64,000 nt of DNA from Vicinamibacterales bacterium (GCA_963816265.1 CAWFJQ010000003.1:1681620-1745619), one strand, 5' to 3'; counted from the first letter of the stretch, positions 9,934 through 47,091 are shown. Translations and numbers: made by a program. The notes: a model not told the origin generated them from the letters alone.

Positions 9934-9949
9934 AGGCACGTCGCTTGCA
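9934..9949 (+). promoter_or_regulatory. Sigma-54 promoter candidate upstream of the lipoprotein-ubiB pair.
   Basis: Reads AGGCACGTCGCTTGCA. Its 15-mer GGCACGTCGCTTGCA is identical to the promoter upstream of the HPF-like gene at 47076-47091. It is intergenic and in the right orientation. Confidence 0.65.
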
Positions 9950-12707: not shown

Positions 12708-15700
12708 TCAACGATCGCGCGCGGGACGCGGCCGCCGGGCCAGCGCCTCGTTCAGCCGGGCGTCGTGGCGGTAGATGTCGTCGGCGAAGTAGACCTCGCC
12801 GTCCGCCGAGACGACGGCCGCGGTCGTGTAGAAGAGCACCACCCTGATCGGCGCCGCCAACTCCACCCGTGACGACACCGCGCCGGCCATCGCCGCCTCG
12901 ATCCGGGCCCGGTCCCAGCCCGTCTCGTCGCGCAGCACCCACTCGGCCAACGCCGTCGGGTCCTCGACCCGGACGCAGCCGTGGCTGAAGTCCCGGCGCT
13001 GCTGCTGGAACAACCCGACCGCCGGCGTGCCGTGCAGGTAGACGTCGGAGGCGTTGGGGAAGACGAATTTGACAAGGCCGAGCGCGTTGCCCGGGCCCGG
13101 TCGCTGGCGCAGCCGGAGCGTCCCGGCTCGCAGCCCGGCGAGTGCCGCCGCTGTCGCCGGGACCGCGTCGGCCTCGTCGCTCTGGCCGTCGACGATCTCG
13201 TAGTCGGCCGGGAGCCGCCGGGTCGGATCGCGCTCGAGTTCCGGCAGCATCTCCTTGAGCAGGATCGATCGCGGCACGTTCCAGTACGGCCGGAAGATCA
13301 CCGTTCGCATCAGGGCGGTGAACACCGGCGTCTCGGTGAGCAGCGCCCGTCCGACGATGACCCGCATCCGCAGCGCCGGTCGGGACGCGTCGGCGCCATC
13401 CCACGCCCCGAGCCGGAACATCGGGATGTTCAGCGCGACGATGCGCTCGTCGCCGGCATCGGGCAACCAGCGCAGCCGCTCGAGCGACAGCTCGATCTGG
13501 CGGATGCGCGCTCGCACGGGCACCGCCAGGGCGGCCCGTGTCGCACGCCCAAGCACACCGTCCGACGCCAGGCCGTGACGCGCCTGGAAGCGGCACACGC
13601 CAGCCACGAGCGTGTCGTCGTAGACGCCGGCGTCAGCGGCCGGCGGCGCATCCGCCGGCAGATCGCCGAACGCCGCCAGGCGCTGGCGCAGGGCGTTGGC
13701 CGTCTCCAGCCGGTCGCTCGGGCGGATCGCCTGCGGTACTGAAGGCCAGGCCGTGTCGGGCAGATCGCCGATGGCACGATACCGGGCCAGTTGGCGACGC
13801 AGCGCCTGGTACTGCGGGAGGGAAGGCGCCAGGGTGGCGGCAACGGCCGGCACGTCGTGCGCGGCCAACGCCGCCTGCAGGAGACCGACGAACGCATGGC
13901 GTTCGGGCTCGGCGTCGAGCGAGATGCCGAGCGACCGGGGATCGACGCGGCCCCGATGGACGTGACGGAAGTAGCGCAGCATCCCGGCGCTCAGCCGGAC
14001 GTCGAAGGCGGCCAGCCGTTCGGCGTCCGGCGCCGGCGCCGCGGCCACCGCCGCGGCCAGCTCGCGCAACGTGTCCAGGCCGTAGTCCGCCGGATCGAGC
14101 CCATCATCCGGCGCTGCGGCGAGCACGCCGATCGCCTCGCGCGCGTCTGTGGTGAGCCGTCCGGAGGCGTCGCTCCACAGGGCCAGGCCCGGTCCCGCAG
14201 CGTAGAGCGCGTCGAGCTCCGCTCGCTCGGACGCGGTGAGGCCAGCCGGGATCTGGCCAGCCGGGATCTGGCCCGTCGGGATCTGGCACGTCGGGCCGGC
14301 CCAGGCACTCGGTGGGAGCGACAGCGTCACGGCCAGCACGAGCAGGGCGTCCCGGGTCGAACGCGGCCAGCGCTTGACCGCTTGCCCCACCAGGGCCGGC
14401 AGGGCCGCCAGGCCGACGACGACCAGCCACTCGGTCCCATCGAGCGGCGTCAGTCCGATCGTCGACGCGATGCCGGGCACGGCGACCGACAGCCACTGCA
14501 GCCCCACCGCAACCGCGACGGCGAGCAGCGCGTAGGGATTGGCCAAGGCCCGCGACGGGTGCAGCACGTGGTGCGGGCTCCGGGCGTTGCCCAGATGGAA
14601 GATCTGGGTCAGGCCCAGCGTCATGAAGCAGACCGTCGTCGCGTGCCCCGGAGCACGGCCCAGCGCCCAGAGGAAGGCGGCCAGCGCCACGACCGTGATG
14701 AGCACGGCATAGAAGACGATCGAGCCGACGAACGAGGCGGACAGCAAGGCCTCGCGCGGATCCCGCGGCGGGCGCTTCATGACGTCGTGATCCGCCGGCT
14801 CCAGCGCCAGCGCCAGCGCCGGGAACGTGTCCGTGACCAGGTTCAGCCACAGGATCTGCAGCGGCAACAGCGGCAGCGGCAGCGCGGCCAGGCCCGCGAC
14901 CGTCAGCACGAGCACCTCGGCGAGGTTGCAGCTGAAGAGATAAAAGACGAACTTGCGGATGTTGTCGTAGACGACCCGGCCTTCCTCGACGGCGGCCGCG
15001 ATGGTCTCGAAGCGGTCGTCCTGCAGGACGATGGCGGCGGCCTCCTTCGCGACGTCGGTGCCGCGCCGGCCCATGGCGACGCCGACGTCCGCCTGCTTGA
15101 GGGCGGCGGCATCGTTGACGCCATCGCCCAGCATCGCGACCACGTCGCCCTGCTCCTGCAGCGACTGGACGACGCGCAGCTTGTCTTCCGGCGCGATGCG
15201 GCTGAACGCGCCCGCGGCGCTGATCCGCTCGCGCAGCTCGGCCGGCGACAGCCCCGCCAGCTCGCGGCCGTCGATCACCTCCGAGACGGCGCCGACGATC
15301 CCCAGCTCCCGGCCGACGGCGGCGGCCGTGTTGCGCTGATCACCGGTGAGCATGACGGTCCGCATGCCGGCCGCTCGCAGCCGGACGATCGTCTCCCGCA
15401 CGCCGTCGGCGGGCGGATCCATCAGCCCGACGAACCCGATGAAGGTCAGGCCGCCGAGGTGTGACTCGTCCGGCTGATCCACCGGGCCGCCCGCGACACC
15501 GAGCACGCGGAGGCCGCCGGCGGCGAGCCGCTCGTTGACGGCGACCAGCTCCGCCCGCCCAGCCTCGTCCAACGACTCGAGGCGACCGTTCCGGCGAACG
15601 TGCCGGCAGAGATCGACGATGCGGCCGGGCGCGCCCTTCACGCTGGCGACGACGGCGCCCGCTTCCCGACCGAAGGTGGCGGCCAGCTTGCGCTCGCTCG

Positions 15701-17030
15701 AGAACGGCACTATGCCAATCGGGGCGGCACCGGTCGCGTCGGCGAGACCGAGGCCGGCCGCTTCGGCGCCGCGCACCAGAGCGCGATCGACGGGATCGTC
15801 GACCGCGCCCGCGTCATCGAGGTCGGCGGCGGGCGGCCGACTGGCCCGGACCGCCACCCGCATCGCCTCCGCGCACGCCGCCGCGGGCGGCTCGCCGGTA
15901 CGGCGGCCCGGCTCGAACACCGCGTCCGGCGTCCAGACCGTGACCAGGGTCATGTCGCCGGAGGTGAGCGTTCGCGTCTTGTCGCTGCACACGACGGTGA
16001 CCGAGCCGAGGGCCTCGACGGCGGCGAGACGGCGGACCAGCGCGCGGCGCGCGGCCATGCGTCGCAGACCGATGGCGAGCGCGATGGTGGCGACCGCCGG
16101 CAGCGCCTCCGGCACCGCGGCCACCGCCAGCGCAATCCCCATCTCGAGCACGAGCGGCAGCGGCTGGCCGTGCAGCAGGTTGAGGCCCGAGGCGGCGGCC
16201 GTCATCGCGAGCACCAGCCAGACCAGGCGGCGGCCGAGCTCGTCGAGACGGCGCTCGAGGGGCGTCGGCGCCTCGGGAATCGCCGCGACGAGCGTGCTGA
16301 TGCGGCCCAGCTCGGTGCGGTCACCGGTCGCGGCGACGACCGCGCGGCCGGTGCCGGCGATGACGGTCGTGCCCTTGTAGATCATGGTGACGCGGTCGGC
16401 GAGCGGGACGCCGGGGTCGAGCACCACCGTCGCGTGCTTCGATACCGGCATCGACTCGCCGGTCAGGGCCGCTTCCGAGACGCGCAGGTCATGCGTGGTC
16501 AGCACCCGCGCGTCGGCCGGGACGCTCTGCCCGCGGCCGACCTCGATCACGTCGCCCGGGACCAGCATCTGCGCGTCGACGATCGCCGTGACGCCGTCGC
16601 GCACGACCGCGCAGCGTGAGACGTCGAGCCCCAGCAGGGCATGCATGGCGCGCCGGGCCCGCAGGTCGATGGTGAAGCCCAGCGCGGTGTTCAGCACCAG
16701 GACCGCGCCGATGGCGGTGGCCTCGGCGAGATCGCCGATGGCGAGCGAGATCGCCGTCGCGGCGATCAACAGCCACACCACGATGCTGCGCAGCTGGGCG
16801 CGGAGGATTTGGCTCGCCGAGACCGGGCTGGCCGGGGCGAGCCGATTCGGCCCGCCGCACGCCAGGCGTTCCGCCGCGACGTCCTGCGTCAGACCCTCCG
16901 CACTCGAGTCGAGGCGCGACAGGGCCTCGTACGGGGTCAGGGTGTGCCAGGCGACGACGGGCGGTGCGGTGCCGGGGCTCACGGCGGCCACAGTCGGCTC
17001 AGGAGCAGGCGGCAGGTACGGTTCCGGCAC
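12708..17030 (-). CDS. Single 1440-aa ORF: an N-terminal P-type (type II, Ca/Mg-like) cation ATPase joined in frame to a C-terminal YcbB/LdtD-like L,D-transpeptidase.
   Basis: ATPase part: cation-ATPase N-domain, TGES, phosphorylation loop CSDKTRTLT, MLTGD, GDGVNDAAAL and TM helices. The junction reads ..ALVGQAVKRWPRSTRDALLVLAVTLSLPPSAWAGP and looks like a Sec signal peptide. After it come a PG-binding domain (VCRFQARHGLASDGVLG) and a YkuD domain with the catalytic SHGCVRV. Confidence 0.8.
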   Translation of the reverse strand: MPEPYLPPAPEPTVAAVSPGTAPPVVAWHTLTPYEALSRLDSSAEGLTQDVAAERLACGGPNRLAPASPVSASQILRAQLRSIVVWLLIAATAISLAIGDLAEATAIGAVLVLNTALGFTIDLRARRAMHALLGLDVSRCAVVRDGVTAIVDAQMLVPGDVIEVGRGQSVPADARVLTTHDLRVSEAALTGESMPVSKHATVVLDPGVPLADRVTMIYKGTTVIAGTGRAVVAATGDRTELGRISTLVAAIPEAPTPLERRLDELGRRLVWLVLAMTAAASGLNLLHGQPLPLVLEMGIALAVAAVPEALPAVATIALAIGLRRMAARRALVRRLAAVEALGSVTVVCSDKTRTLTSGDMTLVTVWTPDAVFEPGRRTGEPPAAACAEAMRVAVRASRPPAADLDDAGAVDDPVDRALVRGAEAAGLGLADATGAAPIGIVPFSSERKLAATFGREAGAVVASVKGAPGRIVDLCRHVRRNGRLESLDEAGRAELVAVNERLAAGGLRVLGVAGGPVDQPDESHLGGLTFIGFVGLMDPPADGVRETIVRLRAAGMRTVMLTGDQRNTAAAVGRELGIVGAVSEVIDGRELAGLSPAELRERISAAGAFSRIAPEDKLRVVQSLQEQGDVVAMLGDGVNDAAALKQADVGVAMGRRGTDVAKEAAAIVLQDDRFETIAAAVEEGRVVYDNIRKFVFYLFSCNLAEVLVLTVAGLAALPLPLLPLQILWLNLVTDTFPALALALEPADHDVMKRPPRDPREALLSASFVGSIVFYAVLITVVALAAFLWALGRAPGHATTVCFMTLGLTQIFHLGNARSPHHVLHPSRALANPYALLAVAVAVGLQWLSVAVPGIASTIGLTPLDGTEWLVVVGLAALPALVGQAVKRWPRSTRDALLVLAVTLSLPPSAWAGPTCQIPTGQIPAGQIPAGLTASERAELDALYAAGPGLALWSDASGRLTTDAREAIGVLAAAPDDGLDPADYGLDTLRELAAAVAAAPAPDAERLAAFDVRLSAGMLRYFRHVHRGRVDPRSLGISLDAEPERHAFVGLLQAALAAHDVPAVAATLAPSLPQYQALRRQLARYRAIGDLPDTAWPSVPQAIRPSDRLETANALRQRLAAFGDLPADAPPAADAGVYDDTLVAGVCRFQARHGLASDGVLGRATRAALAVPVRARIRQIELSLERLRWLPDAGDERIVALNIPMFRLGAWDGADASRPALRMRVIVGRALLTETPVFTALMRTVIFRPYWNVPRSILLKEMLPELERDPTRRLPADYEIVDGQSDEADAVPATAAALAGLRAGTLRLRQRPGPGNALGLVKFVFPNASDVYLHGTPAVGLFQQQRRDFSHGCVRVEDPTALAEWVLRDETGWDRARIEAAMAGAVSSRVELAAPIRVVLFYTTAAVVSADGEVYFADDIYRHDARLNEALARRPRPARDR
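14241..14297. repeat. 15-bp tandem repeat (about 3.8 copies) encoding QIPxG repeats just after the internal signal peptide.
   Basis: Reads GCCAGCCGGGATCTG GCCAGCCGGGATCTG GCCCGTCGGGATCTG GCACGTCGGGCC. On the coding strand this translates as CQIPTGQIPAGQIPAG. Confidence 0.85.
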
Positions 17031-17496
17031 TGGCCGTGGCCGAATGCCGCGCCGGCGTGCCGACGCTGATCCCGGCGAGCACGTCGAGCACGGCGATCCG
17101 CAGCGGATCGGTGCCCGGCGCCTGGGCGGCCCACCGCACGATGTCGTCGATCGACACGATGCCGACCAGGACGCCCCCGTCCCCGAGCACCGGCAGGCGC
17201 CGCACGTGGTACTGCACCATCGTCAGCAAAGCCACGACGCTGTCGTCGTCCGGGGCGCAGCCAATCACCGGCTGCGTCATCACGTTGCGGGCCACCAGCG
17301 TCGACGCCGGCACGTCCCGTCTGCCGAGCGCGATGCAGGCATCACGGTCGGTGACGACGCCGACGGCCTCGCCGCGCTCGTTGACGACCGGCACGATACC
17401 GCACCCGTAGGTGCTCATGGTGTCGATGATGGAGCCCAGGTTGGTGTCGGGACCGCAGGTCCTGACCGTTCCGCCCATGATGGCCTTGATCTTCAT
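16999..17496 (-). CDS. CBS-pair domain protein.
   Basis: ATG 17496 is preceded by AAGGGAG. Reads MKIKAIMGGTVRTCGPDTNLGSIIDTMSTYGCGIVPVVNERGEAVGVVTDRD..VMTQPVIGCAPDDDSVVALLTMVQYHVRRLPVLGDGGVLVGIVSIDDI. The 3' end overlaps the ATPase start by 32 nt. Confidence 0.8.
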   Translation of the reverse strand: MKIKAIMGGTVRTCGPDTNLGSIIDTMSTYGCGIVPVVNERGEAVGVVTDRDACIALGRRDVPASTLVARNVMTQPVIGCAPDDDSVVALLTMVQYHVRRLPVLGDGGVLVGIVSIDDIVRWAAQAPGTDPLRIAVLDVLAGISVGTPARHSATASAGTVPAACS

Positions 17497-27094: not shown

Positions 27095-27110
27095 TGCACA
27101 GGACGTGCCA
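27095..27110 (-). promoter_or_regulatory. Sigma-54 promoter candidate upstream of the 27071 and 26510 operon.
   Basis: The reverse complement reads TGGCACGTCCTGTGCA, matching 11 of the 12 defined consensus positions. The -12 GC lies 25 nt from ATG 27071, leaving a short SD-containing leader. Confidence 0.65.
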
Positions 27111-29585: not shown

Positions 29586-30083
29586 ATGCATCCCTTCCAC
29601 ACCATCGTCGTCGCGGTCGACTTCAGCGACACGTCGGCGGACACCATCGACACCGCCCTCGAGCTGGCGCGAGGTCAGCAGGATCGCGTCCATCTGGTCC
29701 ATGTCGTCACGGACGTCTTCCGTTCGATGGGCCTCACCGAAGCGCCGACCATCGACTGGCCCGAAGTGCAGCGCACCTGGGTCGAACAGGCGCGGAACCA
29801 GCTCATTGGCCTGGCCGCGGGCTGCAAGCTCAATCCGCAGCGCGTCACCATCGCCGTCGAGGCCGGAGCGCCGGCGGCCGAAATCCTGCGCTACGCGCAC
29901 GACCATGGCGCCCAGGCAATCGTCCTCGGATCGCACGGCCACGGCCTCGTCAGGCGCTTCATCCTCGGCGGCGTCGCCGACCGTGTACTGCGTCAGGCCT
30001 CCTGCCCGGTCATGCTCGTTCCGCACCGCTCGCTCCACCTGACGTCCTTCGAGGTCAAGGCCGCCAGCGGCGTCGAATCCTGA
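29586..30083 (+). CDS. Universal stress protein (UspA family).
   Basis: Reads MHPFHTIVVAVDFSDTS..ILRYAHDHGAQAIVLGSHGHGLVRRFILGGVADRVLRQASCPVMLV. Confidence 0.85.
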   Translation: MHPFHTIVVAVDFSDTSADTIDTALELARGQQDRVHLVHVVTDVFRSMGLTEAPTIDWPEVQRTWVEQARNQLIGLAAGCKLNPQRVTIAVEAGAPAAEILRYAHDHGAQAIVLGSHGHGLVRRFILGGVADRVLRQASCPVMLVPHRSLHLTSFEVKAASGVES

Positions 30084-30091
30084 GGTGAGCC

Positions 30092-31204
30092 ATGGACACC
30101 ATGAAGGCAGTGGCATTCCTCGGCACCGGCCGGATCGGCATCGTCGAGCGCCCCAAGCCGAAGCCGGGACCTGGCCAGGCCGTCGTCCGCATCACGACGA
30201 CGACCATCTGCGGCACCGACGTCCACATCGTCAAGGGCGAGTACCCGGTGCGACCGGGCCTCGTCCTCGGCCACGAGCCGGTCGGCGTGATCGAGGCCCT
30301 GTCTGACGGTCTCGAGCCCGAGTACCACGTCGGCCAGCGGGTGATCGTCGGCGCCATCACCCCGTGCGGGCAGTGCTTCTACTGCCTGAACGGCACCCAC
30401 TCCCAGTGCGGCGGCGCGCTCGGCGGCTGGCGCTTCGGCAACACGATCGACGGCGCCTGGGCCGAGTACCTGCTGGTCCCGGACGCCCGCGCCAACCTCG
30501 CGCCGATTCCGGACGGCCTGACCGACGAGCAGGTCGTCCTCGCGCCGGACATCTTCTCGACCGGGCTGGGCGGCGCCGAGAGCGCGAACATCAAGGTCGG
30601 CGATTCCGTGGCGGTCTTCGCGCAGGGACCGATCGGCCTCTGCGCCACCGTCGGGGCGCGGCTGCGTGGGGCCGCGTTGATCATCGGGGTCGACTCGGTG
30701 CCCGAACGCCTGGCCATGGCCCGGCGCCTCGGCGCCGACGTTGTGATCAACCACCGCGAGGAAGACGCCGTCGCCACGATCAAGCGACTGACCGACGGAC
30801 GCGGCGTCGACGTCGCCATCGAGGCGCTCGGCCGGCAGGAGACGTTCGAAAGCGCCCTGCGCGCCATCCGTCCGGGCGGCACGTTGTCGAGCCTCGGGGT
30901 CTACTCGGGCAAGCTCGTGGCGCCCTACGAGGCGTTCTACGCCGGCCTCGGCGACCAGCGCATCGTCACCACGCTCTGTCCGGGCGGCAAGGAACGCATG
31001 CGGCGCCTGATGGCGCTGATCGCGCACCGGCGTGTGGACCTGGAGCCGCTGGTCACCCATCGCTTCGCGCTGGACCAGATCGAGGACGCGTTCGATCTGT
31101 TCAGCAACCAGCGGCAGGGCGTGCTCAAGGTCGCGCTGCATCCCACCGCGCCGGCCGCGGCCCTCGCCCGCGACGTGGTCGCCGACGAGCGCGCCACGGT
31201 CTGA
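30092..31204 (+). CDS. Zinc-dependent alcohol dehydrogenase (MDR family).
   Basis: Intact 370-aa ORF. It has CGTDVH, GHEPVG, the structural-Zn cysteines CGQCFYCLNGTHSQC, and GxGxxG-type VAVFAQGPIG. Confidence 0.85.
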   Translation: MDTMKAVAFLGTGRIGIVERPKPKPGPGQAVVRITTTTICGTDVHIVKGEYPVRPGLVLGHEPVGVIEALSDGLEPEYHVGQRVIVGAITPCGQCFYCLNGTHSQCGGALGGWRFGNTIDGAWAEYLLVPDARANLAPIPDGLTDEQVVLAPDIFSTGLGGAESANIKVGDSVAVFAQGPIGLCATVGARLRGAALIIGVDSVPERLAMARRLGADVVINHREEDAVATIKRLTDGRGVDVAIEALGRQETFESALRAIRPGGTLSSLGVYSGKLVAPYEAFYAGLGDQRIVTTLCPGGKERMRRLMALIAHRRVDLEPLVTHRFALDQIEDAFDLFSNQRQGVLKVALHPTAPAAALARDVVADERATV

Positions 31205-31259: not shown

Positions 31260-32069
31260 TCAGCGCCCGCCGACCAGCGCCACCGCCCGCGCCAGCGCCC
31301 TCTGGAAGTAGTCCTGGGGCGCCTCATCAGGACAGCGCAGCTCCAGCATCGCCCAGCCGTCGAACCGGATCGCCTCGAGGCTGGCCGCGATCTCGGCCCA
31401 GTCAATCGTCCCTTCGCCGGGCACGAGGTGGTCGTCGTAGTGGCCGTGGTTGTCGCTGGCGTGGATGTGCACGAGCCGGCCGTCGCAGAGTTCGGCGAAG
31501 CGACGCCAGGAGCGACCGAGCGCGACGTGGCCGGTGTCGAGGCAGACGCCGGCGCCGTCGTCGACGTGGGCGAGCAGCCAGGCGAACTCGTCGGGGTGCC
31601 CGCCGATCAGGTGCGGCAGGGGCGACTCGATGGCGAGCTGCATCCCTTCGGCGCGGCACGCCGCCGCGACGGCACGGAGGCTGGCGGCCGAGGCCTCGAG
31701 TCGAGCGCCGACGTCTGCTCCATGGCGCGCCAGGTCGCTGGGGTGGGTGACGACGATGCGTCCGCCCAGCTGCTTGAGGGTCCGCGCGGCCGCGATCGTC
31801 GCGTCGATGCCGGCGTCGCGATGCCGCGCATCGGGATGGGCGAGGTCGAGCGACTCACCGAACGGTGCGTGAATCGAGACGGCGCGGAGCGGCAGGCTCT
31901 GCAGGCGATGGCCGACGGCGGCCACCTCGCTCGCCTTCCACAGATCGAAGTGGCGGGGCGGCGTCCCCAGCTCGACGCCCGAGGCTCCGGCGTCGTGCAG
32001 CGTCTGCAGGACGTCGCAGATGGGTCGGTCGACGCACGCGCCGGTGGCGATGCCGATGGACCAGCTCAT
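31260..32069 (-). CDS. Xylose-isomerase-like TIM-barrel protein (sugar-phosphate isomerase/epimerase or AP-endonuclease-2 superfamily).
   Basis: ATG 32069 overlaps the upstream stop (ATGA). Reads MSWSIGIATGAC..VELGTPPRHFD..VSIHAPF..LAIESP..CLDTGH..HIHASDNHGHYDDHLVPGEGTIDW. Confidence 0.75.
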   Translation of the reverse strand: MSWSIGIATGACVDRPICDVLQTLHDAGASGVELGTPPRHFDLWKASEVAAVGHRLQSLPLRAVSIHAPFGESLDLAHPDARHRDAGIDATIAAARTLKQLGGRIVVTHPSDLARHGADVGARLEASAASLRAVAAACRAEGMQLAIESPLPHLIGGHPDEFAWLLAHVDDGAGVCLDTGHVALGRSWRRFAELCDGRLVHIHASDNHGHYDDHLVPGEGTIDWAEIAASLEAIRFDGWAMLELRCPDEAPQDYFQRALARAVALVGGR

Positions 32070-33518
32070 ACCCGGCCTCTCGAGAGCAGGCGATCGCGGT
32101 CCTGGCGCAGGTCGAACGCGCACCCCGTGCCGGGACAGACGCCCTTCTCCTGGGCCGAGACGCAGTTGTAGTCGATCAGCCGATCGAGGCCGGTCGCGAC
32201 GAGACCGGCGAACACGCGCACGTCGAACTCGGCGCGGGTTCGTGGGTGCATGCGGGTCCAGCGGTCGCCCCACTGGTGATCCGCTTCGTACTCGGCGCGC
32301 ACCAGGCCGGCGATGTCGCACGCCGGCCAGTCGCGCGCCAGCAGCGCGCGGGTGAGGTACTGCAGGTGTTCCGGGCGCAGCAGCAGGTCGTTCGGCTTGA
32401 CGAGGCAGGCCGAGATGCAGGGCGGCAGGGACGCCACGTCGAGGGGTCGCACCGCATCGGGCGCGGCGCGGACGCCTTCCTGAAAGGCGCGGTGAAAGGC
32501 CGCGAGCGGGGACGAGACGTACTCGGCGAGCATCAGGCCGATGCCGGCCTCCAGGCTCGGCAGGGCGGCCGGCGCCAGCCCGGCCTCGCGCGCCGCGGTG
32601 TCGACGCCGCGGCCGCGGCTCAGCATGCCGACCAGCCCCCGGTGCCGTCGCGGCAGCGCCACCAGCGGCGGAAACGAGGCGGCCGCCCGGCCGAAGATGT
32701 CCGGCCGGAAGCGGTGCCATTGATAGGTCCCGAACGCGATCCGCGCGTGCCGGATGTCGAGCGGGTCGCCGGCATGCGAGAAGTCGATCGACGCGCATTC
32801 ACGGCCGACGGCGCCGGCGTGCCCGACCACCGTCCCGTTGACGACGACGGGGATAGTGCTCGTCTGGGCCGTCCGGCGCAGCACCAGCTGGGCGAGATGC
32901 TCCAGCAGCAGGCCGAGGCCCGCCGATGCGCGCGCCTGTCGCTCCGTCATCGCCGCATCGACGCCGGCCGGCCGCCGCCGTGCACAGGTCGCATGCCACG
33001 CTGGCGTCTCGAGCACGAGCTCGGCGAGCTGGTCGACCACGGCGTGCTCGAGAGGAATCCGACCGGTGAAGTGGTAGCCCCGCCCGGTCATCAGGTCCAG
33101 TGCCGGTACGGCGAAGCGCGCCAACACGTGTCGGACGGCCCGGTAGACGGGCTCGAGCTTGAAGAACACCTCGGCCGGATGCGTGAAGGGCTCCTGCGGC
33201 GCATCGACGTTCTGATAGTCCAGGTCGAGGACGAACAGGAGGTTCCGCGTGTCCCACAGCGAACGCGACAAATCGCCGGGCTTGGCGAACAGGGTCGGCA
33301 TCCGTTCGGCCGGCACGCACACCGACCGGTCCCAGGTCAGGTGCGGACGCTGGTCGTCGCGCAAGGCCGCGACATAGACGGCGGTGAGCGGAGTGCCCGC
33401 GCCGCCGCCGCAGGTACTCGACCAGCCGCTCGCGCACCGCCGGCCGCGCATAGTAGGCAGCGACGTCATGCGCGTCGCGCGGACGGGGCCCGGGTGCGGC
33501 CATGGCGACGGCCCTCAC
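32066..33518 (-). CDS. Hypothetical protein with an archaeo-eukaryotic-primase-like motif pattern (tentative); one apparent frameshift near 33400-33420.
   Basis: The N-terminus, in the frame of GTG 33518 / ATG 33503, reads MAAPGPRPRDAHDVAAYYARPAVRERLVEYL. The body contains NLLFVLDLDYQN (a DxD-like strand), MTGRGYHFTGRI (GxGYH) and SIDFSHAGDPLDIRHARIAFGTY. The C-terminus is Cys-rich. The start overlaps the upstream stop (GTGA). Confidence 0.5.
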
Positions 33519-35302
33519 GCCGGCACTGCGGCGCGCGCTCGCTCGGCCCGCGCCTTGACGCCACGCAGCATCCGTCGATCCATCTCGCCGCCAATCGGCT
33601 CCACGAGCGCTGGCCCGAACGCCAGCCGGGTGCGCAGATCATCCGAGCACGCGGCCCGATACCGGCTGACGAGGCGGCAACGCCCGGGGCCCGACGGCTC
33701 GAGCAGGAACAGCCAGCTCGCCTCGACCCAGGGCCGACCGGCCGCTTTGGCAGCGGGCGGCGCCGGGACGTGCGCGATCAGATACTTCCCGCGATCGACC
33801 GCGACAGGAAGCGGCGGCATGGCCGGATGGAGGACGAGCACCTGGCCGGTGCCGAGCTCCCACTCGGGGTGGACGATCTCGGCGTTGCGCAGCCGGCAGC
33901 CGGCCACGTTCTCGAGCCATTGATAGCTGTAGAACCCGCCGCGATCGGCCCCGATCTGCGCCACCCACGGCCACACCGCCGCCGGCGGCGCGTCGATGTC
34001 GATGCCGTGCGTCCAGCTCCAGCGCGGCGAGGCGATGAGTTCGTCGCCAGGCATCGCCTGCGTGACCGACTGCGGGTCGCTCCCCCACCGCGCGCGACGG
34101 CCGCGCAGGAAAGGCGTCACCAGGCCGAAGGCCATTCGAACGGCGCCGACCACGCCCTCCCTCATGTCGCGCCAGTCGTCGCGGGGCAGCCGCCCTTCGG
34201 CGCGCGCGGCGAGGTGACGGAGCTGGGCCGCCTGCATCACCGGATGAATCACACCCATCCACAGCGCCCGCGTGCGCTCGCGGCGTGAGAACGCGCCGCG
34301 GACGCGAACGGTCACCCGCGTGCTCCTGGCGTCGAGCGGCTCGAGGACGAAGGCCCACGTCATGTGCCAGAACCGATCAGGGCGAGCGCTGGCAAAGGCC
34401 AGCTGGCGCCTCGACGCCGGGTCGAAGAGCCCGCCCAGCAGCAGCGTGCGCGGCGCAGCCATGCCGAGGACCTCGAAGCCGCTCGACTCGCGCGGCGTCG
34501 CGGGCAGCACGTCGCCGACCGCCAGGCCCTGCCAGTCCGGGTGGATCTCGCGCGCGCTGCGCGCGCCGCCGTTGTCGAGCGCGTCGATGCTGTAGAAGCC
34601 CGCCCGGCGGCCGCCCATCTGCACCAGCCAGGGCCAGATCTCGTCGGCCGTGGCGGCGATGTCGACCCGGTGCGTCATCTGCGCCCGGGCGTCGGGCAGC
34701 CGGCTGTCGCCCGGCAGGATGCGTTCTTCGTCCGTGCCGGCGGGTCGGCCGAACTCCCGCGCCAGCGCGCCGAGCAGCGAGCGGCGGATGAAGCGGGAGG
34801 CCGGGCCAATCAGCCGGAAGTAGCGGCGGAACTTGCGCCAGGACGCGTCGTCGGTGGCGGTCACCCGCACTTCGACTTCGAGGTGCGACCTGCCCGGCCC
34901 GAGGGGTGACACCCGGATCGCCCAGGCCACCTTGACGTAGGACGGCGTGGCGAAGCGGAGGAAGTCGCCGGCGCCGTCGACGTGGACGAAGGGAATGCTG
35001 AGACGCCAGACCTGGCCGATCGCTCCGACGGCCACCTCGCGCGGCGGGTCGTCGACGAGGACCTGGAACCCGGGATGTTCGGCGGACGACCGCATGTCAT
35101 CGAGCTTGACGCGGGCGGGGGCCGGCGTCTCGCCGCCGCGGTCGACGAGGGTCCGCAGCGCGAACAACGCCCGTGTCGTCGGCGAGTGGGCCAGGCCGGC
35201 GTGGCGCACGCGACGCCACACCTGCTCCGCTGGAGCGGCCAGGTCGACGCGGTCGACCTCCACCAGCCGGGCATTCGGGATGAGCCTGTCGAGTGCGGTC
35301 AT
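33515..35302 (-). CDS. Protein with three tandem SRPBCC (START/polyketide-cyclase-like) domains.
   Basis: ATG 35302 follows GAGGAGG. The module recurs three times: ..VWRRVRH..FQVLVDDPPREVAVGAIGQVW..; ..IWPWLVQMGGRRAGFYSIDALDN..; ..VWPWVAQIGADRGGFYSYQWLEN... Confidence 0.7.
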   Translation of the reverse strand: MTALDRLIPNARLVEVDRVDLAAPAEQVWRRVRHAGLAHSPTTRALFALRTLVDRGGETPAPARVKLDDMRSSAEHPGFQVLVDDPPREVAVGAIGQVWRLSIPFVHVDGAGDFLRFATPSYVKVAWAIRVSPLGPGRSHLEVEVRVTATDDASWRKFRRYFRLIGPASRFIRRSLLGALAREFGRPAGTDEERILPGDSRLPDARAQMTHRVDIAATADEIWPWLVQMGGRRAGFYSIDALDNGGARSAREIHPDWQGLAVGDVLPATPRESSGFEVLGMAAPRTLLLGGLFDPASRRQLAFASARPDRFWHMTWAFVLEPLDARSTRVTVRVRGAFSRRERTRALWMGVIHPVMQAAQLRHLAARAEGRLPRDDWRDMREGVVGAVRMAFGLVTPFLRGRRARWGSDPQSVTQAMPGDELIASPRWSWTHGIDIDAPPAAVWPWVAQIGADRGGFYSYQWLENVAGCRLRNAEIVHPEWELGTGQVLVLHPAMPPLPVAVDRGKYLIAHVPAPPAAKAAGRPWVEASWLFLLEPSGPGRCRLVSRYRAACSDDLRTRLAFGPALVEPIGGEMDRRMLRGVKARAERARAAVPA

Positions 35303-35323
35303 ACGCGCCTCCTCTGAAGCCGC

Positions 35324-35339
35324 TGCAAGATCCCATCCG
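35324..35339 (-). promoter_or_regulatory. Weak sigma-54 promoter candidate upstream of the SRPBCC operon.
   Basis: The reverse complement reads CGGATGGGATCTTGCA: GG and TTGCA at consensus spacing. It lies 23 nt from ATG 35302 with the SD in between. The -24 half is poor. Confidence 0.3.
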
Positions 35340-35473
35340 GGCCGAGCCGCCCCCTTCCGGCGCTCGATGGCAGACGACGAGCCGCGGACTATCGCGCAGC
35401 GAGCGGGAGGAATTCCGCACCCCGACACCGGGCTGTGCGCTCGCCGACCGATTTCCCGCTGGCTCGATTCTTG

Positions 35474-36563
35474 ATGCGATCGGGCGCCCGGATGGATCTG
35501 CCAGCCGGCATCGAACAGGCGCGCCTGCTGGCGCAGTTCAAGTACGCCCTCGATCAGGCCGCCATCGTGGCCATCACCGATCGCGGCGGGCGCATCACCT
35601 ACGCCAACGATCGCTTCTGCGCCATCTCGCAGTACGCCCGGGAGGAGCTGCTCGGGCAGGATCATCGCCTGGTCAATTCAGGCCTCCACTCGCACGAGTT
35701 CATGGCCGACCTGTGGCGGACCATCACCGGCGGCCGGGTCTGGCGCGGCGAGCTCCGCAACCGGGCCAAGGATGGCTCGCACTACTGGGTCGACACCACC
35801 ATCGTGCCGCTGCTCGACGAGAGCGGCCGATCGCAGCAGGACCCTGGCGATCCGCTACGACGTGACCCAGCGCAAGGCGGCCGAGATCAAGCTGCGGGAA
35901 CAGGCGGCGCTCGCCAAGCTCGGCGAGCTCGCCGCGATTGTGGCGCACGAGGTGCGGAACCCGCTCGCCGGCCTCCGCGGCTCGCTCCAGGTGCTGGGCA
36001 CACGCATCCCGCCCGGCATGCGGGGCGGCGAAATCATCGGCGCCATGGTGGAGCGCATCGACGCCCTGGCCGACCGCGTCTCCGACATCCTGATGCTGGC
36101 GGCGGCACGCGAGGCGCGGCTGCGGCCAGTGCGTCTCGGCCCGATCCTCGTCGAGGCGGCGATGAGCGCCCACGCCGCCGTGCCGGGCGTGCCGATGCCG
36201 GTGCTGGCCGAGGCCAATCCCGAGGTCGTCGCCGATCCGGAGATGTTGCGCGAGCTGTTGCTGAACCTGGTGATGAACGCCTGTCAGGCGTCGCGGACGC
36301 ACACCAGCGAGGCCGTCCGCGTCCAGGTCACGACCGCTGACGGCTCGTGCCGGATCGAGGTGCTCGATTGCGGCAGCGGCATCGATCCCGGCATCCGCGA
36401 CCGCATCTTCGAGCCGTTCTTCACCACCAAGCATGGCGGGACCGGACTGGGCCTGGCCATCGTCAAGCGCCTGGTCGACCTCCAGGGCGGCGGCGTGACC
36501 CTCGGCGACCGCGAGGGCGGCGGCGCCTGCGCCCGGGTGACGCTCCCCATCCACCAGCGCTGA
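35474..36563 (+). CDS. Soluble PAS-domain sensor histidine kinase; one apparent frameshift near 35830-35850; the start is uncertain (35435, 35474 or 35492).
   Basis: PAS domain: [68 protein letters not shown]. The next frame reads [11 protein letters not shown].., then the H-box [13 protein letters not shown], the N-box [12 protein letters not shown], and the G-boxes DCGSGI and GGTGLGLAI. Confidence 0.8.
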
Positions 36564-36635
36564 TCCCGCGCCGGCAGGCCCGGTCCCGCCTCGTGCTGGC
36601 ACGGACCCCCGCCGTCGGACGATACTGTCCGCAAC

Positions 36636-38000
36636 ATGCGCAATGCCACGATCCTCGTCGTCGACGACGAGCAGCTCGTTCGGTGGTCCCTCAGCGAGCG
36701 ACTGCGGGCCGACGGCTACCGCGTCGTCGAAGCCGCCACCGGCCAGGACGCCCTCGATCGCGCCGCTGACGGCGTCGACCTGGTGCTGCTCGACTACAAG
36801 CTGCCCGACACCGACGGCGTGACCGTGCTGCGCAAGATCAAGGAGCAGGACCCGGACATCCTCGTCATCCTGCTCACCGCCTACGCCACCGTCGAAACCG
36901 CGGTCGAGGCGATGAAGATCGGCGCCTACCACTTCGCCAACAAGCCCTTCAACCTCGACGACATCTCGCTGACGGTCGCCAAGGCGCTCGAGACGACGCA
37001 GCTGCGCCGCGAAGTGCGGATGCTGCGGGCCAGCCAGGCCCAGCCCTACGGCTTCGACCGCATCGTCGGCGAATCGCCGGTGATGGGCGCGCTGCGGGAG
37101 CTGCTCCGCAAGGTGGCCGCCAGCCCGGCGTCGACCGTGCTCCTGACCGGCGAGAGCGGCACCGGCAAGGACCTGGCCGCCAAGGTCCTCCATTTCAACA
37201 GCCAGCGCGCCAGCCGGCCGTTCGTCAACATCACCTGCTCGGCGATCCCCGAGGCGCTGCTCGAAAGCGAGCTGTTCGGTCACGAGCGTGGGGCGTTCAC
37301 CGACGCGCGCCAGCAGAAGCGCGGGCTGTTCGAGCAGGCCGACGGCGGCACCGTCTTTCTCGACGAGATTGGCGAGATGGTGCCGGCCCTCCAGGCCAAG
37401 CTGCTGCGCTTCCTCGAAGAGAAGTCGTTCAAGCGCGTCGGCGGGGCGCACGACATCACGGTCGACGTGCGCGTGGTGGCGGCCACCAACCGCAACCTCG
37501 AGGAACAGGTGCGCGCCGGCCAGTTCCGCGAGGATCTCTTCTACCGGTTGAACGTACTGCCGATCGTCCTGCCGTCGCTGCGGGGCCACCTCGACGACGT
37601 CCCGGCCCTGGTCGACTTCTACATCGATCAGTTCAACCGGGAGTTCCGCAAGAGCGTGCGCGGCACGTCGCCCGACGCAGCCCGCGATCTCCGCGCCTAC
37701 GGGTGGCCGGGCAATGTCCGTGAAGTGCGCAACGCCGTCGAGCGGGCCATGCTGCTCGCCGACGGCGACTGGCTCGAGCCACACGACTTCCCCGCCGTCG
37801 CGGTGCGCCGTCAGGCCGGGCACGACATCGCGCTGCCGGCCGACGGCGTCGACCTCGAGCAGCTCGAGAAGAGCCTGGTCGTCCAGGCCCTCGAGCGAAG
37901 CGGCCACAACCAGACGCGCGCCGCCGCGCTCCTCGGTCTCAACCGCGATCAGATCCGCTATCGCATCGAAAAGTTCGGCTTGATGAAGCCGGCCTCGTAG
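36636..38000 (+). CDS. Sigma-54-dependent response regulator (NtrC/AtoC family enhancer-binding protein).
   Basis: Intact 454-aa ORF. REC domain ([20 protein letters not shown]). AAA+ domain ([48 protein letters not shown]). C-terminal Fis-type HTH. Confidence 0.9.
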
Positions 38001-47075: not shown

Positions 47076-47091
47076 TGCAAGCGACGTGCCC
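47076..47091 (-). promoter_or_regulatory. Sigma-54 promoter candidate upstream of the HPF-like gene.
   Basis: The reverse complement reads GGGCACGTCGCTTGCA, matching 11 of the 12 defined positions. It is intergenic and about 80 nt from ATG 46997. Confidence 0.65.

Follow-up and report, generated by a model that had tools for sequence, protein, structure and literature searches.

The archaeo-eukaryotic primases (AEPs) of bacteria fall mainly into two groups, namely the repair polymerases associated with LigD or LigC and the primases of mobile elements. In stationary-phase mycobacteria, Prim-PolC fills short gaps with ribonucleoside triphosphates (rNTPs) after the ends have been cleaned by endonuclease IV (PMC5663958). 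Here, we analyzed a 64,000-nt stretch of DNA from a Vicinamibacterales bacterium (GCA_963816265.1 CAWFJQ010000003.1:1681620-1745619; G+C content ~72%), hereafter called the window, in which three minus-strand genes named G1, G2 and G3 lie between positions 31260 and 35302 (all coordinates refer to the window). On the evidence of structural modeling, the G2 family is AEP-fold, with a LigD-Pol/Prim-PolC-like catalytic domain whose metal- and nucleotide-binding motifs are intact. Together with G3, a candidate metallo-phosphoesterase, G2 forms an obligate pair that is translationally coupled and sometimes fused. This makes G2 an AEP family that is new in its accessory domain, its partner and its physiological context; a survey of new AEP families (PMC5862659) mentions nothing of this sort, and full-text searches on AEP families turned up no account of such a family.

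The fold assignment is carried by the structure comparison. The AlphaFold2 model of P0001, a full-length G2 orthologue with 83% identity, reached a pLDDT of 92.3 and a pTM of 0.92, and a Foldseek search of the PDB with this model returned AEPs of five families for all of the top 19 matches, with a probability of 1.00 for the top 7. The best matches included Prim-PolC of M. smegmatis (6sa0, E 6.5e-4) and the LigD polymerase domains of P. aeruginosa and M. tuberculosis, with a target-normalized TM-score of up to 0.53 (2iru). Further matches comprised CAPP (CRISPR-associated Prim-Pol), human and yeast PriS and the PrimPol of African swine fever virus, while the top matches among the viral models of BFVD were, as far as they are named, nearly all primases or primase-helicases. 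The initial annotation of the window had likened the middle protein to primases by its motif order (YY..R, LLFVLDLDY, TGRGYHF, IDFSH..LDIRHARIAFGTY); all of these motifs are present, and the structure search indeed lands in the AEP fold.

We next considered the conservation of the catalytic residues, which was counted over 63 diverse homologues down to 22% identity. Motif I (LDLDY, Asp-x-Asp/Glu; 33215-33229, minus strand) lies on strand 87-98 of the P0001 model, and its D93 is found in 58/63 homologues, while 59 carry E (39) or D (20) at position 95. Motif II (TGRGYHF, [ST]GxG[YH]H; 33068-33088, minus strand) occupies the beta-hairpin 135-150 and retains [ST]139 in 61, G142 in all 63 and H144 in 56 sequences. 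The motif III region SIDFSHAGDPLDIRHARIAFGTY (hD ... R..R.[PA]F[ST]; 32723-32791, minus strand) starts from D240 (62/63), which ends the model strand 235-240, and continues with R251 (59/63), R254 (58/63), F257 (58/63) and S/T258 (53/63). The Asp and His residues whose conservation the initial annotation had proposed to check are thus kept across the family.

By sequence, the family is large and almost silent. At least 507 homologues of ~475 aa each were found, all of them annotated as hypothetical and devoid of a Pfam domain, and a profile search of 1.84 billion cluster representatives gave 619 clusters at 50% identity. Neither the single G2 sequence nor the 63-sequence profile had a match in Pfam, NCBIfam, PADLOC or PDB sequences, and the Pfam and NCBIfam models returned nothing for the G2 of the window, for P0001 or for the 63 homologues. 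Profile-profile comparison lends marginal but independent support to the AEP assignment. Against a LigD-Pol profile built from nine plasmid-borne ligD genes, the best hhalign segment of the G2 profile consisted of motif II and the preceding helix, placed opposite KTSGGKGLHV (E 0.024), and an extended run also brought motif I into register with the DLD of LigD-Pol (E 0.011). These two runs and a comparison with a single LigD sequence (E 0.16) served as supportive register checks, not as proof, and motif III resembles the LigD element D..APYS.R by pattern only, as hhalign left it unaligned. Altogether, we hold the fold of G2 and its pairing with G3 to be highly probable.

The accessory part of G2 is its C-terminal domain (32069-32647, minus strand), which covers residues ~286-478 and is all-helical. 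It contains four conserved cysteines in the pattern C-x84-C-x8-C-x4-C (codons at 32417-19, 32162-64, 32135-37 and 32120-22), which are kept in 60, 58, 59 and 49 of the 63 homologues. Judging from this pattern alone, the Cys4 domain probably binds Zn or an Fe-S cluster through the four cysteines. Modeled alone from the window sequence, the domain reached a pLDDT of 90.5, and a search of this model against the PDB gave no fold match (best E 2.7). An identification as PriL-CTD or PriCT was rejected on the grounds of this result.

G3 (31260-32069, minus strand) encodes 269 aa and matches AP_endonuc_2 at 3.7e-37, in line with the xylose-isomerase/AP-endonuclease-2-fold TIM barrel assigned to it beforehand. 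A 24-member alignment showed that H67, H109, E148, D178, H181, H203, D212, H214 and E243 are invariant or nearly so. In an hhalign comparison with E. coli Nfo, eight of these residues were paired with H109, E145, D179, H182, H216, D229, H231 and E261; H67 is located immediately before the aligned segment and was matched to Nfo H69 by eye. These nine Nfo residues are the ones that coordinate the three metal ions in endonuclease IV. The metal site of G3 is therefore of the endonuclease IV/MJ1311-like type and not that of a plain sugar isomerase, and since the complete trinuclear site is retained, G3 is probably a phosphoesterase. Furthermore, a HAPF motif resembles the HAPY of endonuclease IV, and E. 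coli Nfo finds a G3 orthologue directly by tblastn (E 2.7e-5). The nearest solved structure is MJ1311 (3wqo, 1.6e-22), which is listed as a predicted endonuclease IV homologue of M. jannaschii (PMC2770678). Sub-threshold NCBIfam matches were obtained to IolE, to the phosphodiesterase CbiR (3e-9) and to nfo (8e-4), and the 18.7 bits scored on TIGR00587, far below the cut-off of 129.65, speak against nfo orthology. G3 is hence best described as a candidate endonuclease IV/MJ1311-like metallo-phosphoesterase, not as an Nfo orthologue.

The relationship between the two genes was surveyed in 43 genome loci, nearly all from metagenome-assembled genomes (MAGs) of Vicinamibacteria/Vicinamibacterales. 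G3 directly follows G2 in ~40/43 loci. In the window, the stop codon of G2 and the start codon of G3 are joined by the ATGA at 32066-32069 (minus strand), as had been noted before, and the identical overlap is kept in the relatives with gene coordinates examined (L001, L046, L047, L053). In three representatives (P0184, P0200, P0224) the two proteins are fused, and fusions of G2 to CBS and OsmC domains also occur. The initial annotation had described an operon of three genes; all three occur together only in the three closest contigs (G2 78-83% identical). What persists across the 43 loci is G2 together with G3, and this pair, rather than the set of three genes, makes up the conserved unit.

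Remote homologues of G2 were seen in other settings (L049, 3833-6776; L050-L052). One bacterial contig carries two tandem paralogues and no TIM-barrel partner, and in an archaeal-type contig a remote homologue adjoins a Pelota gene, again with no TIM-barrel partner. The upstream gene in L049 is the tandem paralogue itself, and the upstream genes of L049 and L051 are unrelated. Given these homologues without a TIM-barrel partner, the AEP-like family extends beyond the module seen in Vicinamibacteria.

Next, we looked at the genes that surround the pair. In the window, G3 is convergent with a Usp gene (29586-30083, plus strand) and a Zn-dependent alcohol dehydrogenase gene (ADH; 30092-31204, plus strand), both of which recur near G2-G3. 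Other recurrent neighbors are genes for PAS histidine kinases, NtrC-type activators, P-type ATPases and ADP-forming acetyl-CoA synthetase, as well as old yellow enzyme, HSP20, Cpn60 and CBS proteins. In most loci that have the ADH within 8 kb of G2, it is 77-83% identical. Upstream of G2, a gene for a ManC-like sugar-1-phosphate nucleotidyltransferase (best match ManC TIGR01479, 1.5e-29) belongs to the same operon in ~15/43 loci, and an OsmC-like gene, together with it or in its place, is found upstream in at least 11 loci. Among the OsmC-like proteins encoded directly 5' of G2 (L005, L008, L015, L017, L021, L024, L031, L034, L035, L039), the first cysteine of the family is retained in most and the second is missing from many; possibly they are not OsmC/Ohr peroxidases of the conventional type. 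A classification of the pair as a non-homologous end joining (NHEJ) or LigC-type system was tried and rejected, because the partners Ku, ligase and ExoIII were not found in any locus searched.

The gene upstream of the pair in the window, G1 (33515-35302, minus strand), is accessory and lineage-specific. Its 595-aa product had been described as three SRPBCC/START-like modules. The length and the SRPBCC assignment hold, as the whole protein matches Pfam Polyketide_cyc2 above the cut-off (36.2 bits versus 27.4), whereas its thirds match only below threshold (E 0.031, 1.7e-4 and 1.8e-4; 15-22 bits versus 27.4), so that the presence of three modules is plausible. With more than 1155 homologues, G1 belongs to a much larger family than G2, and only the three closest contigs have it upstream of G2. 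G1-type proteins also occur in the absence of G2-G3, with cydAB or ADH/Usp/OsmC genes as neighbors. In one genome, such a gene directly follows cydA-cydB with an overlapping start, and in another it precedes genes for a Zn-ADH, dodecin, BON, Usp and OsmC (L054, 3661-7842; L056, 6001-13544). This hints at a role of G1-type proteins connected with quinones or lipids or with respiratory stress, independent of G2-G3.

On the other side of G1, a divergent intergenic region (35303-35434) separates the operon from the PAS kinase and the NtrC-type activator announced by the initial annotation, and the Pfam domains of both are present. The PAS sensor histidine kinase gene spans 35435-36563 on the plus strand (start uncertain, probably ATG 35492). 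The sigma-54 activator is encoded at 36636-38000 on the plus strand and comprises a receiver, an AAA+ and a Fis-type helix-turn-helix domain (Sigma54_activat, 1.5e-68). Across the loci, NtrC-type genes are located within 8 kb in 9 loci, the window included, and PAS-kinase genes in 8, with a large overlap between both sets. Putative sigma-54 sites were scored against the 12-position -24/-12 consensus TGGCAC-N5-TTGC. In ~16 relatives, sites matching 10-11/12 positions are located directly 5' of the first operon gene, at a background of 0.11 such sites per kb per strand. Seven loci (L005, L006, L011, L014, L017, L033, L039) have a site that starts 28-29 nt 5' of the ManC-like gene. Only ~12 nt separate the end of the site from the aligned first-gene start in these loci, and the leader would therefore be very short or absent.

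For the window itself, the picture is different. The weak -24/-12 motif recorded earlier is indeed there (CGGATGGGATCTTGCA, 35339-35324, minus strand), but it matches only 8/12 positions, and of this site nothing beyond TTGCA is kept in the upstream regions of L046 and L047, where the GG-N10-GC spacing is not conserved. For these reasons, the site was set aside as a candidate sigma-54 promoter of the window. The proposed palindrome GGAATTCC likewise exists (35409-35416) but does not exceed chance, with one occurrence in the window versus 0.42 expected and at least one in 33/100 shuffles; as it is also not conserved in the relatives, it was rejected. A GAGGAGG Shine-Dalgarno sequence precedes the ATG of G1 in the same region. 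The idea of a sigma-54 target is thus backed by the good, consistently placed sites of many relatives, whereas the window's own site is weak and unconserved: as far as promoter sequences can tell, sigma-54 control has good support in the family as a whole but is unproven in the window copy. A first pattern search with three mismatches returned 496 matches versus 516 expected, and scans for sigma-70 promoters and terminators were both empty. Three stronger matches (11/12) are located elsewhere in the window, namely AGGCACGTCGCTTGCA at 9934-9949 (plus strand), GGGCACGTCGCTTGCA at 47076-47091 (minus strand) and TGGCACGTCCTGTGCA at 27095-27110 (minus strand), which may be real targets of the NtrC-type activators of the window. 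With Usp, Zn-ADH, OsmC-like proteins, P-type ATPases, ADP-forming acetyl-CoA synthetase and G1 as members around it, the pair appears to belong to a stress- or hypoxia-type regulon of Vicinamibacteria, which is apparently governed by PAS kinases and NtrC-type activators via sigma-54.

One feature sets the G2 copy of the window apart from its homologues. Described beforehand as a protein of about 480 aa, with the frameshift read through, it turned out to be split over two reading frames on the minus strand. The N-terminal 30 codons (MAAPGPRPRDAHDVAAYYARPAVRERLVEY, 33503-33414) align with the N-termini of P0001 and P0007, and the main body, starting CGGGAGTPL... and comprising 448 codons and the stop, follows in another frame (33412-32066) with the AEP-fold catalytic domain and the Cys4 domain. 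DNA alignment with two relatives (L046 and L047) located a surplus C at 33413/33414 in GAGTA(C)CTGCGG, where the window has CC and the relatives have C, and homologous proteins run through this position without a break (...YYAQPAVRDRLIEYCGGGA...). This also bears on the start of G2. The GTGA at 33515-33518, taken by the initial annotation as the overlap between G1 and G2, is present; the G2 start conserved among homologues is ATG 33503, preceded by a GAGGG Shine-Dalgarno-like sequence 8 nt 5' of it. Because this start lies 12 nt beyond the G1 stop, both genes are probably close without overlapping. A second lesion was detected by tblastn with the intact L047 kinase and by DNA comparison: a surplus C in the CCC run at 35842-35844 breaks the PAS kinase gene and puts its PAS domains in a different frame from the HisKA/HATPase_c domains.

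Both one-base insertions are probably assembly errors. We prefer this explanation to gene decay because the lesions are expansions of C runs, the halves still resemble homologues and the G1 product is found 100% identical in public data. If instead the locus were decaying in this genome, G2 and the kinase gene would be true pseudogenes and the operon would have no function here, which we consider rather improbable. Two independent +1 C insertions within 2.5 kb that hit G2 as well as the kinase would fit such decay, as would the finding that a collection of 5.8 billion proteins holds no protein at least 90% identical to the window G2, yet holds G1 at 100% identity. On the other hand, single-C expansions of short C runs are typical of long-read assembly errors, the halves of both genes match homologues at 79-88% identity and carry no further lesions, and the source is apparently a single MAG contig of 4.35 Mb. 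The fact that the kinase lesion is of the same kind as that in G2 suggests systematic indel errors in the source assembly. Further gapless same-strand frame switches were seen in a frame plot of the third-codon-position G+C content (e.g. ~4726, 23536, 41911 and 59941 on the plus strand and ~19555 on the minus strand); some of these are ordinary gene boundaries, and others could be additional frameshifts. Elsewhere, a P-type cation ATPase shares a single stop-to-stop frame of 1504 codons (12708-17222, minus strand) with Scaffold, PG_binding_1 and YkuD (L,D-transpeptidase) domains. This may represent a fusion of an unusual kind, a pair of neighboring genes that happen to share a frame, or a further artefact of the assembly.

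What might the pair do? Our preferred reading is that G2-G3 constitutes a stress-induced module for nucleic-acid end-processing and gap filling, to which we assign a probability of about 0.45. G3 would clean damaged or blocked 3' ends or abasic sites, and G2 would fill the resulting gap by templated addition of NTPs or dNTPs, probably rNTPs, in non-growing cells. The substrate of the pair, and hence its role in repair, is something we infer, and the mechanism is proposed because of the analogy with the polymerase and phosphoesterase (PE) domains of LigD and with Prim-PolC, whose best partner in stationary-phase mycobacteria is endonuclease IV (PMC5663958).

Several findings weigh against this proposal. 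No AEP family of Pfam and no PDB chain is matched by the G2 sequence, the profile at E up to 10 included; Foldseek gives modest E-values and hhalign marginal support, and the G2 copy of the window is frameshifted. Remote G2 homologues (25-30% identity) lack the TIM barrel. In sequence comparison with PDB chains, G3 scores better on ketose 3-epimerases (3e-10) than on endonuclease IV (1e-4), and MJ1311 is reported to share the nine ligands and to lack the DNA-binding groove of endonuclease IV. A tblastn search of the window and of 55 related loci (829 kb) with Agrobacterium Ku, LigD, LigC-like and Xth proteins returned nothing, which leaves these loci devoid of Ku, ATP-dependent ligase and ExoIII, and the sampled neighbors of G2-G3 likewise include no gene for a ligase, Ku, ExoIII or a glycosylase. 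Finally, the ManC-like nucleotidyltransferase within the operon at ~15 loci fits small-molecule metabolism better.

This last possibility, the main rival, deserves to be spelled out, even though we regard it as unlikely. The ManC-like enzyme would make an NDP-sugar or a similar activated compound, the AEP-fold G2 would transfer a nucleotidyl or phospho group to a non-nucleic-acid substrate or polymerize it, and G3 would epimerize or hydrolyze the product, with a stress metabolite or compatible solute as the outcome. Besides the NTP_transferase gene in the operon, the higher scores of G3 on ketose 3-epimerases, IolE/IolI and CbiR than on Nfo point in this direction, and so do the lack of DNA-repair genes in the searches above and the nature of G1 as a ligand-binding SRPBCC protein. 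Against this reading, every AEP characterized to our knowledge acts on nucleic acids. G3, moreover, retains the nine-ligand site of endonuclease IV; ketose 3-epimerases are not known to have this site in full. The operon structure itself also speaks for a mixed stress operon rather than one pathway: upstream of the constant G2-G3 pair, genes of the NTP_transferase, OsmC-like and SRPBCC types replace one another.

Alternatively, the pair could act on RNA, with G3 healing 3'-phosphate or 2',3'-cyclic-phosphate ends and G2 adding nucleotides with or without a template, as part of a sigma-54-controlled stress response whose logic would be comparable to that of RtcR-RtcBA. The sigma-54 promoters and NtrC-type activators adjoining the operon, the combination of a phosphoesterase-type metal site with a nucleotidyltransferase and the absence of an associated DNA ligase in the window and the 55 loci would all agree with this. 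However, an RNA ligase, kinase or Hen1-like partner is missing, the closest structural relatives of G2 are DNA-gap-filling enzymes and the idea is entirely inferential, which leaves it quite improbable in our judgment. Still less can be said for G2 as the replicative primase of an integrated mobile element or as a part of an anti-phage defense. Many bacterial AEPs are encoded by mobile elements (PMC5862659), and the viral structure matches of G2 are primase-helicases. Nevertheless, no integrase, helicase, PriCT or phage genes are located nearby, the chromosomal stress-regulon context is stable over 43 loci and PADLOC returned nothing for G1, G2 or G3, its sole match, a weak one (PDC-M70B, E 8e-5), being to the TIM barrel within the P0184 fusion. 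We therefore consider this explanation extremely improbable.

Beyond the gap-filling module proper, a broader and more doubtful suggestion is that G2-G3 represents an undescribed two-enzyme machine of non-growing soil Acidobacteria. It would carry out either ligase-independent repair or tailing of nucleic acids, or, together with the ManC-like nucleotidyltransferase, a reaction of the AEP fold on a non-nucleic-acid substrate. A sigma-54 hypoxia or stress circuit would switch the machine on, and the Cys4 domain would possibly be an Fe-S domain that senses redox state or O2. The version with a non-nucleic-acid substrate, if true, would present the first AEP-fold enzyme recruited to such a substrate. 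The G2 family would add a third, chromosomal and stress-regulated kind to the bacterial AEPs. It is common in Vicinamibacteria, a soil lineage that is abundant and has largely escaped cultivation, and offers a candidate explanation for the upkeep of nucleic acids in slow-growing soil bacteria under hypoxia or starvation. It also provides a lead on the function of MJ1311-type TIM barrels, which have an endonuclease IV metal site and no known substrate, and more than 500 "hypothetical proteins" could become AEP-fold nucleotidyltransferases in annotation.

Comparison with known systems places these elements in context. Regulons of dormancy or hypoxia that are rich in Usp proteins, such as the mycobacterial DosR regulon, resemble the surroundings of G2-G3, where genes for Usp, HSP20, Cpn60, CBS proteins, P-type ATPases, ADH and ADP-forming acetyl-CoA synthetase are clustered. 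Instead of a DosR-type regulator, the control of G2-G3 apparently relies on a PAS histidine kinase and NtrC-type activator together with sigma-54. With PriS-PriL, which carries its Fe-S cluster in the PriL C-terminal domain, and with the PriCT primases of mobile elements, G2 shares the combination of an AEP core and an all-helical four-cysteine domain. Yet the C-terminal model of G2 is structurally dissimilar to PriL-CTD and to every PDB entry, the PriS matches are weaker than those of LigD-Pol, and the genomic context of G2 is unrelated to replication. G3 has the TIM barrel in common with endonuclease IV, MJ1311 and CbiR and in addition possesses all nine endonuclease IV ligands; unlike Nfo, it remains far under the nfo cut-off and is nearer in sequence to ketose 3-epimerases.

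The closest parallel is found in the LigD polymerase domain and Prim-PolC. Both differ from G2 in several respects, as G2 has no HMMER-detectable sequence homology to them, a long helical insert between motifs II and III and an extra C-terminal Cys4 domain of ~190 aa. Compared with LigD systems, G2 has no Ku or ATP-dependent ligase in cis (window and 55 loci), and its partner is a TIM barrel instead of the LigD-type PE domain. At the same time, these enzymes (2fao, 2iru, 5op0, 6sa0) are the best structural matches to G2, with ~340-360 aligned columns and target-normalized TM-scores of 0.43-0.53, and the three catalytic motifs are common to both sides in identical order. As with G2, their genes reside on the chromosome and are tied to stationary phase or stress, and they act together with a phosphoesterase that cleans 3' ends, which is the PE domain in LigD and endonuclease IV in the case of Prim-PolC.

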